A stretch of 45,805 bases of DNA, taken from sequence record NC_019718.1; one strand, written 5' to 3'. A model generated the notes under the pieces. That model saw only the letters and a program-made list of their open reading frames with translations. It searched no databases and was not told the DNA's origin. This document shows positions 30,071 through 32,809 of the stretch, piece after piece. This DNA is from Enterobacteria phage vB_EcoS_Rogue1. The number at the start of each line of letters is the position of its first letter. Position 1 is the stretch's first letter. A program made the translations under genes and the position numbers.

Positions 30071-30094
30071 AAAGCCCCTTTCGGGGCTTTTTTA
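30071..30094. terminator. bidirectional rho-independent terminator at convergent junction
   Basis: AAAGCCCC-TTTC-GGGGCTTT hairpin flanked by A-run and T-run. Confidence 0.75.
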
Positions 30095-32809
30095 TTGTGA
30101 CGTTACATCACCATTCAAACTCAAAAATACTGATTGTTTTGTCAAATCAACACCACCTTTAAGCGAATAGTATCTTGAAGCGCAATAATCAGACTCATCT
30201 GAATAGCTGCCAACGTAAACACCAAAGCCATATCCAGAGCAAGCTACATCACCAGCGCCTTGACCTGAATACATGGTTACATAGTTACCGGCTGTTGTTA
30301 GTATAGGTCTGACATCAATATCTATATACTGAGAATCAAATGACCTTCTAACTCTAAATCCAGTATTCAGGTTTAAGATGCTCCACCAAACCTTACCAGA
30401 TACATCAAAACCAAGAGCAATATTGTAAGTACCACCGTTGACCATTCTTGATGAGACTGGCAACACACCTGATAAAACTCTTGTTTCACCTGATGCTGAT
30501 ATTAACAATGAGACACTGTGTTCTCCTGATGCCATCACGTTATACTGCAAGTAAAGAGCATTACTATTAACCCCAAAACCAGTCCCTATAGCCATAAGGT
30601 TAAAGTCTTCAGCAACAGTTATGGTCGGCGATATATTGCATGTAGCGGTGAAACCTAGTGACGGGTCAAATCCAGTGCATATAATCTTATCTTTATTTGC
30701 CTGTGAAAGCCTTAGCCAATATTGCTGCCCAACTGATGATTCCGCTGCGGCGAATACTGGTGTATTAGAGACCCCATCAAAAGCTGAAGTGTCGTTTGCT
30801 GGCTTAATTCTTGTCTTCCTTTTGTCTATCAGTCCGTTTATCTTCAGGTTTCCTGAATACTCAGCAACATAGTTAGTGTCCCCTGAGAAATTTGGGCCAA
30901 AGTAACCAGATTCAACAACCCCATCGATCACAACATCAGATCTTGAGTCAAGGAATCTGAAGTTGCCAGCGGAAGTTGGCCTTCCATCGCCATTGTTAGA
31001 TACATAGTTAAGCCCAACAAAACCATAGATTCTTACAGAGCTATTTGAAAACGAAACGTTATAATCTCTGTAGTTTGAGTTTATGCTGTTCCTGTTACTA
31101 TTTAATCCATTAAATACCACATTTCTAGAGTTTACAATTCTAACACCGTCACCACCGCAATCCTGCGCCTCTATAGCTGACATGGTGATGTTTTGGCAGT
31201 TATCAATCAGGATGCCATAAGCATCATCAAGCTCATTATAAGCCGACCAACCCGACCAAATAAACTTACCGCCAACAATCCTACAGTTTCCGGCATTCCT
31301 AAGTATTAGACAATTTCTTCCACAGGTGTTTACCTGTATGTTATTCCATGTGAAGTCTGTTGTTTCGTTAATCAATCCGTCTTTTTTTATGTGCTGAATA
31401 AGAACATCATCAAGAACAGGAGAGTAGTTACCAGCAGCAACGAAAATTCCGTAAACATCAAACCCAGCAATGTGAGTGTTTCTTATCGTTAAGTCCCTTC
31501 TAGGGTCAGCACCAGTGTTGAATGGGTAATTGGTTGATAACCCAGTCGGAGTAGGGATGTAAATCCCAGCAGTACCATCAGTAAACGCCGTGTCTTGCTG
31601 GGCTCCAGTGCCGTAAAGAGCAATACCTTCAATATGAATGAGCGAGCAAGAATCAGAAACCTCAATTAAAGAGCCAATTGATGAACTAAGCTGAGTTATT
31701 CTTGACTTGTGCTTGCCAAAACCAATTATAGAGCAAGATTTATTTCTCATTACCAGGCTTGATGCCATGTAGTCGCTATCAAGCTTTAATGCCAGCCCGG
31801 AGTCTAGGATTTGCTGTATCTGTGTCGTTGAGTCTGATGTCGATGACTTAATGGCCCCAAGTTCGCAAGGCGACAGCTCCCCGCTACAGATTCTTTCCCA
31901 GTAATAACCGGTACTTGATTCAAAAACCAATCCTGAAGATAATCCATATGATAAAGATGACTCCGGCTTACAAACAAAGAACCCACCACCATAACCAAGA
32001 CCACCAATGTAAGAATCACAATAGACAACCTCTAAGTCATAAATTCTGGCAGAGTTTGTCATTGCTGATACTGATTCAAACCTTCTTGTGTAATCCTGTT
32101 GAATCCAAAAACCAACTCCAATACCACCTGTAGACTGTGGTGATGAGTTTTGTGGTATGGATTTTGGAACGCTACCAGACCAGTAATAAACCGAAACATG
32201 ATTGTCATTAAAGTAAATTGCAGGCTGAGTTCTTGAGTTTATTTCTCCACCATTTGAGAAATCAACTACAAGAGCAGATGACACAGAAGCCGCAGCAGAG
32301 CTTGCTATTGTAGCTGAAGAGGAAGCCGAGTTAGCGCTACTTTCAGCTAACTGCCTATCAGAAGATACCTGATCTTTGTCAGAAGAAACTTGAGCAGCAT
32401 CAACAGCAACTTGCTGAGATTGCATGTTGACATTATTTACGCTTTGCTGGAAAGAATCAGAATCAAATTGATTAAAAGCATCAACTGCCGCTGCAACCTC
32501 TGTTTCACGGGACTGATAATAACGAAGTGTCTCAGCAACGTCCTGAGCAAGACCTTGGACAGTAATTCCGTCATGAGCAAGGATTGAGTACTGAGTCCCA
32601 GCTGGCGCAGTAAAACCTTTATCATTGAATACACGAATCTCTGTATCGCTTAAAATCTCAGCGATAGTAACAATGCTTGTCGGGGTGGTGTTAAAAATCA
32701 TTGTTGCGCCAACTCGGATTAGTGTTAGTGGTTGCCTCCACGTGGTGCCAACACCAGTTACAGTTCCGTCAGCTGCAAGCGATGCAGTTCCAGCGTCATA
32801 AATTGCCAT
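30092..32809 (-). CDS. tail fiber / tailspike protein with probable right-handed beta-helix domain
   Basis: 905 aa; AGGAGA RBS; central region has repetitive Asn/Gly/Val-rich strands (e.g. IVNSRNVVFNGLNSNRNS); Ser/Ala/Gln-rich linker near the N-terminus. Confidence 0.65.
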   Translation of the reverse strand: MAIYDAGTASLAADGTVTGVGTTWRQPLTLIRVGATMIFNTTPTSIVTIAEILSDTEIRVFNDKGFTAPAGTQYSILAHDGITVQGLAQDVAETLRYYQSRETEVAAAVDAFNQFDSDSFQQSVNNVNMQSQQVAVDAAQVSSDKDQVSSDRQLAESSANSASSSATIASSAAASVSSALVVDFSNGGEINSRTQPAIYFNDNHVSVYYWSGSVPKSIPQNSSPQSTGGIGVGFWIQQDYTRRFESVSAMTNSARIYDLEVVYCDSYIGGLGYGGGFFVCKPESSLSYGLSSGLVFESSTGYYWERICSGELSPCELGAIKSSTSDSTTQIQQILDSGLALKLDSDYMASSLVMRNKSCSIIGFGKHKSRITQLSSSIGSLIEVSDSCSLIHIEGIALYGTGAQQDTAFTDGTAGIYIPTPTGLSTNYPFNTGADPRRDLTIRNTHIAGFDVYGIFVAAGNYSPVLDDVLIQHIKKDGLINETTDFTWNNIQVNTCGRNCLILRNAGNCRIVGGKFIWSGWSAYNELDDAYGILIDNCQNITMSAIEAQDCGGDGVRIVNSRNVVFNGLNSNRNSINSNYRDYNVSFSNSSVRIYGFVGLNYVSNNGDGRPTSAGNFRFLDSRSDVVIDGVVESGYFGPNFSGDTNYVAEYSGNLKINGLIDKRKTRIKPANDTSAFDGVSNTPVFAAAESSVGQQYWLRLSQANKDKIICTGFDPSLGFTATCNISPTITVAEDFNLMAIGTGFGVNSNALYLQYNVMASGEHSVSLLISASGETRVLSGVLPVSSRMVNGGTYNIALGFDVSGKVWWSILNLNTGFRVRRSFDSQYIDIDVRPILTTAGNYVTMYSGQGAGDVACSGYGFGVYVGSYSDESDYCASRYYSLKGGVDLTKQSVFLSLNGDVTSQ

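Follow-up and report, generated by a model that had tools for sequence, protein, structure and literature searches.

The closest described relative of the protein considered here is TSP2 (ORF211) of phage CBA120 (Kuttervirus, Ackermannviridae), an O157 O-antigen glycosidase whose structure and catalytic residues have been solved (PDB 5W6P, 6W4Q). Mutagenesis defined an acid/base pair, Asp506/Asp571, with Glu568/Tyr623 as the alternative and Arg594 in addition; TSP2 gives halos, and its D506A:D571A mutant gives none (PMC7506556). A second group of described proteins comprises Depo32 of Klebsiella phage GH-K3 (7VYV/7VZ3), whose substrate is the K2 capsule, DpK2 (7LZJ) and the fibre of the BASEL phage AugustePiccard. 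The BASEL paper described the site between the recombination genes and the primase gene as the lateral tail fibre locus of the Drexlerviridae (PMC8594841, S1C Fig).

Phage vB_EcoS_Rogue1 is a T1-like siphophage (Drexlerviridae, Rogunavirus) that infects E. coli O157:H7, and the kinship of TSP2 (CBA120 orf211), JK06 and phiV10 was noted in 2011. Here, we analysed a 45,805-nucleotide stretch of Rogue1 DNA (NC_019718.1), hereafter the window. We found that its 'tail fiber' gene very probably encodes a lateral tailspike, which joins a Drexlerviridae anchor to a TSP2-type O157 O-antigen glycosidase module at a fixed Drexlerviridae locus. The gene is already deposited and annotated, and the finding is an ordinary and known one.

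Results

Identity and architecture of the tailspike

The open reading frame starts with ATG, and the positions of its features are collected in Table 1. The primers JK-75-F/R lie inside it, at 31278-31301 (minus strand) and 30793-30816 (plus strand), and yield a product of 509 bp, the value published for these primers and the Rogue1 "putative tail fibre gene"; thus, the two genes are the same. The GC content of the window (44.2%) and the coordinates of its tRNA-Arg also agree with those published for Rogue1; the window begins with other letters than the published Rogue1 sequence. The full-length protein matches PHROG 4818 'tail fiber protein' (E 0), and the gene is 99.9% identical at the nucleotide level to the 'tail fiber' gene of AHP24/AHS24. 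The same gene is found at the same locus in JK06 (orf75/76), AHP24_34, C119, phiKP26, phiJLA23, e4/1c, BECP10 and UDF157lw, with 97.9-99.9% nucleotide identity, and appears in two pieces in the JK06 and UDF157lw records because of frameshifts.

Table 1. Features of the Rogue1 tailspike gene and its flanks, in window positions
Feature	Position	Strand	Basis or remark
Lateral tailspike CDS, annotated 'tail fiber'; 905 aa + stop codon, complete	30092..32809	-	ORF list
Ribosome-binding site AGGAG, 7 nt 5' of the ATG	32817..32821	-	Read from sequence
aa 1-102, virion anchor of Drexlerviridae lateral fibres, ends in the conserved motif DVAETLRYYQS	32504..32809	-	tblastn, relatives
aa 103-181, Ser/Ala/Gln-rich segment ('linker' of the sequence-only reading)	32267..32503	-	Composition, AlphaFold helix
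aa 182-241, Tail_spike_N (D1-type head) domain	32087..32266	-	Pfam PF18668, AlphaFold
aa 242-660, TSP2-type D3' + right-handed parallel beta-helix (D3), glycosidase domain	30830..32086	-	phmmer, Foldseek, AlphaFold
aa 661-905, C-terminal beta-sandwich (TSP2 D4 equivalent)	30095..30829	-	TSP2 alignment, AlphaFold
D485, catalytic site	31355-31357	-	TSP2 Asp506
E547, catalytic site	31169-31171	-	TSP2 Glu568
D550, catalytic site	31160-31162	-	TSP2 Asp571
R573, catalytic site	31091-31093	-	TSP2 Arg594
Y602, catalytic site	31004-31006	-	TSP2 Tyr623
Bidirectional terminator hairpin AAAGCCCC-GAAA-GGGGCTTT	30071..30090	.	T-run on both strands; pattern scan
Intrinsic terminator after the primase gene, ACCCTCTTCGGAGGGT then TTTTTT	32861..32882	-	Pattern scan; hairpin 32867-32882

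The N-terminus is indeed that of a tail fibre, as had been proposed from the sequence. A tblastn search with aa 1-181 matched 838 phage records over aa 1 to ~118, nearly all of them T1-like phages of Klebsiella, Escherichia, Shigella and others. Sf12 gp27 is 96% identical over aa 1-102 and divergent beyond, the Depo32 and DpK2 chains match aa 1-175 (E 1e-35), and the AugustePiccard protein shows 60% identity over aa 1-237. Depo32, DpK2 and AugustePiccard share with Rogue1 the anchor, the helical bundle, the locus and the order of domains (anchor, head domain, beta-helix, C-terminal domain), but the Depo32-type distal enzyme is unrelated to that of Rogue1, with 11-12% identity in the structural alignment. 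The anchor region is invisible in the Depo32 map and has no coordinates there, and the AlphaFold confidence for the Rogue1 anchor is ~30.

Residues 121-181 consist of 28% Ser, 20% Ala, 13% Gln and 13% Val, in agreement with the proposed Ser/Ala/Gln-rich linker. AlphaFold places a helix at 117-177 (pLDDT ~46-74), and the whole segment (aa 103-181) is a predicted long alpha-helix, probably in a trimeric helical bundle. The following head domain matches PF18668 over aa 182-237 (E 2.7e-13; 50.2 bits against a gathering threshold of 25), is modelled as a small beta domain (pLDDT ~80) and also occurs in Opt-719, AugustePiccard and many other Drexlerviridae fibres. TSP2 has a wholly different N-terminus: where Rogue1 carries the Drexlerviridae anchor and the helical bundle, TSP2 has residues 1-168, with which a myovirus builds its branched TSP1-4 complex.

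A TSP2-type enzyme module that keeps the catalytic residues

The distal part of the protein corresponds to TSP2 over nearly its whole length. With phmmer, aa 242-895 aligned to residues 24-673 of the 5w6p chain (E 1.5e-174) and likewise to 6w4q (~1e-174); the blastp identity to TSP2 was 45.6% over 654 aa. In the residue alignment with TSP2, the identity was 48.5% over aa 295-660 and 45% over aa 661-905. The most common residues here are Ser, Gly, Ile, Asn, Leu and Val. The AlphaFold model contains the beta-helix that the sequence-only reading had anticipated as a depolymerase fold, seen as a solenoid-like strand ladder at 340-600 (pLDDT 85-95), followed by a mostly beta-stranded region at aa 661-905 (pLDDT ~70-90). 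Foldseek ranked 6w4q/5w6p first (E ~1e-59), and below them only other tailspike beta-helices. Global TM-scores against TSP2 stayed low, at 0.47-0.61, owing to the poor relative orientation of the domains in the monomer model. The Pfam Beta_helix family (PF13229) matched aa 438-591 with 20.9 bits, under the gathering threshold of 25.9, and the fold is thus established through TSP2 instead. A Pfam search of the TSP2 and phiV10 proteins gave no matches, and PF27114 (Phage_tail_beta) appears only in precomputed large-database annotations.

Rogue1 has a counterpart for each of the five catalytic-site residues of TSP2, with verified codon positions within 31004..31357 on the minus strand. Among them are the acidic residues that a catalytic beta-helix had been expected to show: D485, E547 and D550 align with Asp506, Glu568 and Asp571. 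The five residues are conserved in every family member examined (Rogue1, phiV10, P0002-P0008) and are absent from proteins that have only the anchor in common. Their retention in four phage lineages whose proteins share 36-61% identity overall argues for selection for catalysis.

Rogue1 and TSP2 thus have in common the D3' domain, the beta-helix, the C-terminal domain, the host serogroup and the catalytic residues. The axis ion ligands of TSP2 are not kept in Rogue1 (R284V, K465N and N565S, all three changes of chemical character, with D415 replaced by Glu); the trimer contacts would therefore differ in detail from those of TSP2, and the ligand changes do not speak against a trimer. By analogy to this 45%-identical homologue, we infer that the Rogue1 tailspike would form a trimer and would cleave the O157 O-antigen.

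A fixed locus with an exchangeable distal part

Is the tailspike gene a displaced and swappable host-range module, as the sequence-only reading proposed? The gene does lie on the minus strand between recombination and replication genes, with ExoVIII, Erf and SSB (all on the plus strand) on one side, and primase and a regulator (minus strand) and helicase (plus strand) on the other. However, the Drexlerviridae keep their lateral tail fibre locus in this very arrangement (primase, fibre, convergent ssb/erf/exo), with the same gene order in AHP24, Sf12, Opt-719 and a metagenomic relative (L006), and the gene is thus not displaced.

Comparison of the locus across relatives supports the notion of exchange for the distal part. 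Distal domains of dozens of unrelated kinds follow the Drexlerviridae anchor, and other lateral fibres of the family bear pectate-lyase, SGNH, GDPD, sialidase or Peptidase_S74 modules. Conversely, the TSP2-type distal module sits on four unrelated anchors. It is found in phiV10 gp25 (Uetakevirus, epsilon15-like podophage; 39% identity) behind an epsilon15-type N-terminus and in P0004 (P22-like prophage tailspike; 48% identity) behind the P22 head-binding domain PF09008, in both cases with the catalytic residues kept. The homology of both to Rogue1 begins at aa 267-270, which excludes the Tail_spike_N domain from the shared module. We found no exchange of the module between Rogue1 and its close relatives: the tailspike genes of Rogue1 and AHP24 are 99.9% identical, whereas the adjacent recombination genes differ (72-94% identity, with only 72% for the adjacent erf), and the tailspike gene is not the variable part there. 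At the DNA level, just three short patches of ~70% similarity to CBA120 orf211 are left, and any transfer would thus be old.

Discussion

Based on the TSP2 homology, the catalytic residues and the AlphaFold beta-helix, the earlier depolymerase and host-range readings are very probably right. We propose the following mechanism. The tailspike would be a trimer whose ~100 N-terminal residues, judged from homology, dock on the tail, with the helical bundle and the small Tail_spike_N head linking this anchor to the TSP2-type module (D3', beta-helix and C-terminal beta-sandwich). The beta-helix would bind the O157 O-antigen and hydrolyse it by acid/base catalysis in an inter-subunit cleft, with D485 and D550 as the putative catalytic residues and E547, Y602 and R573 as support. 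Cleavage would allow the virion to pass the O-antigen layer, after which the gpJ tip and a separate receptor-binding locus downstream of gpJ may reach the terminal outer-membrane receptor. The same cleavage would lead to the O157-only host range and to plaque halos, and exchange between phages would be limited to the part distal of the anchor, the lateral-fibre locus itself staying fixed in the Drexlerviridae.

The published phenotypes bear on this proposal. Lysis by Rogue1 and by AHP24-type phages is confined to O157 strains, and halos have been published for Rogue1, BECP10 and UDF157lw. The authors of the UDF157lw study ascribed the halo and the depolymerase to a different gene, ORF_26, whose product is a 'major tail protein'. 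Together with the Beta_helix score below the curated Pfam cut-off, this assignment would fit a fibre that only recognises the O157 O-antigen and leaves its cleavage, and the halos, to another gene product. We consider such a fibre very unlikely: the TSP2 catalytic set is complete (five of five) and kept in all four lineages, TSP2 itself makes halos that depend on its acid/base pair, and no other beta-helix or depolymerase-like gene was found in the examined part of the window. Alternatively, the enzyme could be active on another substrate, i.e. a different O-antigen, an exopolysaccharide or a capsule, with the restriction to O157 coming from gpJ and the receptor-binding locus. At 45% identity to TSP2 the substrate-contacting residues could differ, UDF157lw reportedly plates on some generic E. 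coli with a halo that is not strictly tied to the O-antigen, and phiKP26 has Salmonella as its recorded host. Yet phiKP26 is the only one of 19 near-identical phage records that does not come from a phage isolated on O157:H7, and outside this group the module is that of the O157-specific Kuttervirus TSP2 and of phiV10, itself an O157 phage, so that nearly all carriers, across the four lineages, infect O157. Moreover, BECP10, whose gene copy is 99.3% identical, lost adsorption after periodate treatment and does not plate on wzy or rfaJ mutants, and Rtp-type relatives with the same long gpJ fibre and a different tailspike lack the O157 host range. We regard a different substrate as highly improbable.

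Virion proteomics of Rogue1 (three gel bands) and of AHP24-type phages (seven gel bands) did not list the 96-kDa tailspike among the reported proteins, and the 'tail fiber' band in these studies is the 124-kDa gpJ homologue; electron micrographs of UDF157lw show star-like fibres at the tail end. The tailspike gene is also transcribed against the tail operon, has terminators on both sides and has a distal GC content of 41.0%, at the 5th percentile of 2-kb windows. These features of the gene and the gel-band proteomics would suit a recently acquired, displaced cargo gene, perhaps acting as a soluble enzyme, rather than an ancestral structural gene. However, a fibre gene occupies the same locus throughout the Drexlerviridae, the N-terminal anchor recurs in the 838 matched records, the gene is nearly identical to that of AHP24 next to diverged recombination genes, and the loss of DNA similarity to CBA120 points to an old transfer. 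We also rejected a recent foreign origin on base composition, since the distal GC content is low but not the lowest in the genome, and AGG codons are not elevated against the rest of the phage. Of the explanations considered, cargo status is an extremely remote one.

As a discovery, the tailspike reading is of little consequence, and its practical value is modest. It spells out that the T1-like phages of O157 encode a TSP2-type glycosidase whose catalytic site is intact, and thus the tailspike, not the 'major tail protein' of UDF157lw, is the obvious candidate for the halo-forming and anti-biofilm depolymerase. The gene is also an obvious candidate for O157 detection reagents, and the several mapped junctions at which the module was grafted onto four phage anchors could be used for tailspike engineering.

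Transcription and codon usage of the tailspike gene

The gene is bracketed by one bidirectional and one minus-strand terminator, a point on which the original proposal, our scan, the folding energies and the AHP24 annotation (terminators at both sites, the ssb-side one on both strands) agree. The hairpin at 30071-30090 is common to the convergent ssb and tailspike genes and folds with -14.4 and -15.9 kcal/mol (z -3.9 and -3.5 against shuffles), and the primase-side terminator, 57 nt 5' of the tailspike ATG, folds with -12.8 kcal/mol (z -4.3). According to the ORF list, the gene abuts terminators at both ends, with no chaperone or second fibre gene at the locus. It is the last gene of a leftward regulator-primase transcription unit in which an intrinsic terminator lies between it and each upstream gene. 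No sigma-70-type promoter was found in the 57 nt that separate the ATG from the upstream terminator, the closest promoter-like pair before the gene being TTGCAT/TACAAT with a spacer of 9 nt.

Given these terminators and the missing sigma-70-like promoter, expression of the tailspike might depend on read-through. We therefore speculate that transcription from a replication-gene promoter, reading through the terminators at 33831-33858 and 32867-32882, could supply the enzyme early, before the other structural proteins and partly in free form. Such free enzyme could strip the O-antigen off the cell that made it and off cells nearby, serving to destroy receptors or in exclusion, and could yield the large halos besides decorating virions. 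We consider this scenario very unlikely.

The AGG-rich codon usage that had been taken as a mark of a swappable module turned out to be phage-wide. The tailspike gene contains 11 AGG codons (12.2 per 1000). This would be many for an E. coli gene, but 15 other window genes, pooled, reach 13.1 per 1000, and the phage encodes its own tRNA-Arg(CCU) at 3387-3462; AGG is thus no sign of a foreign gene. The tailspike gene stands apart in its use of AGA, which accounts for 22 of its 37 arginine codons, and in GC3, which is low at 33.5%.

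A TSP2-like tailspike mosaic

The annotated 'tail fiber' of Rogue1 is a four-part mosaic of anchor, Ser/Ala/Gln segment, Tail_spike_N head and enzyme module. The latter shares homology with phage CBA120 tailspike protein 2 (TSP2, orf211), an O157 O-antigen glycosidase of solved structure, with 45.6% identity over 654 aa. An earlier sequence-only reading had proposed here a beta-helix fiber with a Ser/Ala/Gln-rich linker, and both features were recovered: residues 121-181 contain 28% Ser, 20% Ala, 13% Gln and 13% Val, and the AlphaFold model (mean pLDDT 71, anchor about 30) shows a strand ladder at residues 340-600 with a pLDDT of 85-95. 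TSP2 was the top fold match of this model (E about 1e-59, 40-44% identity), followed almost only by phage or phage-like tailspike beta-helices and, further down, by beta-helix alginate epimerases. Global TM-scores to TSP2 were modest (0.47-0.61) because the domain orientation is poor in the monomer model.

Features of the Rogue1 tailspike gene, its neighbours and its protein
Feature	Position	Strand	Remarks
exoVIII	27918-28886	+	
Erf	28943-29590	+	
SSB	29638-30060	+	
Hairpin terminator	30071-30090	both	T-runs on each strand
Tailspike ORF	30092..32809	-	905 aa, ATG start
Ribosome-binding site AGGAG	7 nt upstream of tailspike ATG	-	
Hairpin terminator	32867-32882	-	TTTTTT directly after hairpin
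Primase	32888-33811	-	
Cro-like regulator	33864-34337	-	
Helicase	34379-36373		divergent, beyond regulator
N-terminal anchor of Drexlerviridae lateral fibres	aa 1-~102		tblastn
Ser/Ala/Gln segment	aa ~103-181		AlphaFold: single long helix 117-177
Tail_spike_N head domain	aa 182-241		PF18668, 50 bits
Enzyme module, TSP2 homologue	aa 242-905		E 1.5e-174 to 5W6P/6W4Q

A tblastn search with residues 1-181 returned 838 phage records, aligned over residues 1-~118 and dominated by T1-like phages of Klebsiella, Escherichia, Shigella, Salmonella and Citrobacter. Sf12 gp27 is near-identical to the tailspike as far as the motif DVAETLRYYQS, but the rest of it is another kind of fibre, short and ending the resemblance there, with a chaperone domain of the Peptidase_S74 type. 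The Ser/Ala/Gln segment shows homology to what the authors of the Klebsiella depolymerase Depo32 study named its helical-bundle domain; in their cryo-EM map this domain and the anchor are invisible.

The ORF itself was confirmed as first read, as was its setting between plus-strand recombination genes (exoVIII, Erf, SSB) and the minus-strand primase and regulator genes. The terminators said to bracket it are likewise real: both hairpins are followed by T-runs, have folding z-scores of -3.5 to -4.3 against shuffled sequence, and coincide with rho-independent terminators annotated in the AHP24 record. The published tail-fibre primers JK-75-F/R have perfect matches at 31278-31301 (-) and 30793-30816 (+), giving the 509-bp product within the ORF that the Rogue1 paper reports.

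In TSP2, mutagenesis assigned the acid/base roles to Asp506 and Asp571, and an alternative apparatus consists of Glu568 and an Arg594-tuned Tyr623 (PMC7506556). By alignment, with codons verified, Asp506, Asp571, Glu568, Tyr623 and Arg594 correspond to D485, D550, E547, Y602 and R573 of the tailspike, which has acidic catalytic residues. All five are kept in phiV10 gp25, in a full-length variant with 61% identity encoded on another T1-like contig (P0002), in two Kuttervirus proteins (P0003, P0005), in the tailspike of a P22-like prophage (P0004) and in a 795-aa protein of Citrobacter sedlakii (P0008), and are absent in those proteins compared that have only the anchor in common. C. sedlakii has an O-antigen cross-reactive with O157. 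The trimer-axis ion-binding residues of TSP2 (R284, D415, K465, N565) are not conserved in Rogue1.

Exchange of the distal module

The location between recombination and replication genes had been taken as displaced, which did not hold. Recombination and primase/helicase genes, conserved and syntenic, flank the lateral tail fibre locus of Drexlerviridae, and conservation of its largest fibre gene is confined to the far 5' end (PMC8594841). We found the same gene order in AHP24, Sf12, Opt-719 and the metagenomic contig L006. Compared with Sf12 and Opt-719, DNA similarity extends from the primase through the initial ~300-410 nt of the fibre gene, ends at 32511 and 32397, respectively, and restarts at ssb.

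The proposed exchange of a host-range module is supported by the relatives. The distal module occurs on four anchors (Drexlerviridae, Kuttervirus TSP2, epsilon15-like phiV10 and the P22 head-binding domain), with homology starting at residue 180, 182, 240, 267, 270 or 292 depending on the lineage, and the Drexlerviridae anchor bears pectate-lyase-like, SGNH, GDPD, sialidase, endonuclease/phosphatase and S74-chaperone modules in other phages. The module thus exchanges between phages, over long time scales. The P22-anchored form (P0004), at 5001-7358 of L007, occurs in E. coli prophages (64 member sequences).

Between the close relatives Rogue1 and AHP24, DNA identity is 99.4-100% for the tailspike, primase, regulator and helicase genes, versus 71.7% for Erf, 93.5% for ssb and 94.0% for exoVIII. 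The bidirectional terminator marks the recent mosaic boundary, and the recombination module, not the tailspike, is what changed. In AHP24 and Opt-719 an HNH endonuclease separates exoVIII from erf; Rogue1 has only a 56-nt gap there (28887-28942).

L006 (24.5 kb, Logan SRR13759224), from a more distant T1-like phage, encodes at 6001-8727, in the same locus, a full-length variant with 61% identity and the catalytic residues kept; the flanks have 65-79% DNA identity. Identity is lowest (30-40%) at residues 251-350, and the target of this tailspike may be a variant form of the O157-type antigen.

Near-identical copies and published phenotypes

The genes annotated "tail fiber" in AHP24 and AHS24 have 99.9% DNA identity to the Rogue1 tailspike gene, and those of AHP42, phiJLA23, C119, AKS96, UDF157lw, phiKP26, BECP10 (99.3%), JK06 (99.2%) and e4/1c 97.9-99.7%; these phages are Rogunavirus (Drexlerviridae), nearly all isolated on E. 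coli O157:H7. The records of UDF157lw (OQ243221.1) and JK06 (DQ121662.1/NC_007291.1) show two 'tail fiber' CDSs in place of one, with aligned lengths of 2717 and 2713 nt versus 2718, which are probably frameshifts or sequencing errors; the Rogue1 paper ascribes the JK06 differences to the latter. The UDF157lw paper credits ORF_26 (a 'major tail protein') and not the TSP2-like gene with the halo and the depolymerase activity, which looks like a misassignment.

The published phenotypes of Rogue1-type phages fit a tailspike cleaving the O157 O-antigen, its activity, trimeric state and virion location being predicted. Rogue1 forms plaques whose clear centre measures 1 mm and whose halo is large and opalescent, and both non-O157 strains tested (2/2) were spared; AHP24-type phages lysed O157:H7 and none of the ECOR strains. 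BECP10 is halo-forming, loses adsorption after periodate but not after proteinase K, and plates on wzy or rfaJ transposon mutants only when these are complemented. The tailspike is not among the proteins listed by published gel-band proteomics of Rogue1 and AHP24; the "tail fiber" band of these studies is the 124-kDa gpJ homologue.

Presumably gpJ (21764-25189) and the downstream DUF6453/lipoprotein locus deal with the terminal receptor, following the model for Drexlerviridae (PMC8594841). Just past gpJ, in convergent orientation, 25221-26503 (-) encodes a small ORF alongside a 323-aa DUF6453 protein (Pfam E 1e-138). It corresponds to the rtp44/rtp45-type locus for receptor binding and a superinfection-exclusion lipoprotein, which has been tied to terminal receptor choice (PMC8594841).

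Kutter et al. (2011) noted that the only proteins resembling CBA120 orf211 past residue 254 are the "tail fibers" of phiV10 and siphovirus JK06, and the JK06 gene is the same gene as the Rogue1 tailspike. Besides this kinship, earlier papers describe the structure and mechanism of TSP2, the variable Drexlerviridae lateral-fibre locus and the dependence of this phage group on O-antigen, so that the finding itself is known.

Expression and base composition

The tailspike gene lies in a minus-strand terminator cascade (30071-34378) of regulator, hairpin 33831-33858, primase, hairpin 32867-32882, tailspike and hairpin 30071-30090. Because two intrinsic terminators precede it within the leftward regulator-primase unit and no sigma-70-like promoter was found in the 57 nt before its ATG, early expression by terminator read-through is conceivable, if improbable.

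The gene had also been called AGG-rich, which is true in absolute terms (11 codons, 12.2 per 1000) but not specific to it, 15 other genes of the window pooling to 13.1 per 1000. We thus reject AGG bias as an argument for a swappable module; the reading as a beta-helix depolymerase, of predicted activity, and host-range module stands without it and without a displaced location. The tape measure, gpJ and portal genes contain 32, 22 and 10 AGG codons, a heavy use explained by the single tRNA-Arg(CCT) that ARAGORN placed in the window at 3387-3462 (+), whose anticodon reads AGG; the Rogue1 paper prints identical coordinates. The GC content of 44.2% equals the published value, and the lowest-GC stretch of the genome, 36200-38800 (39.5-40.1% in 2-kb windows; mean 44.4%), holds small genes without known function downstream of the helicase.
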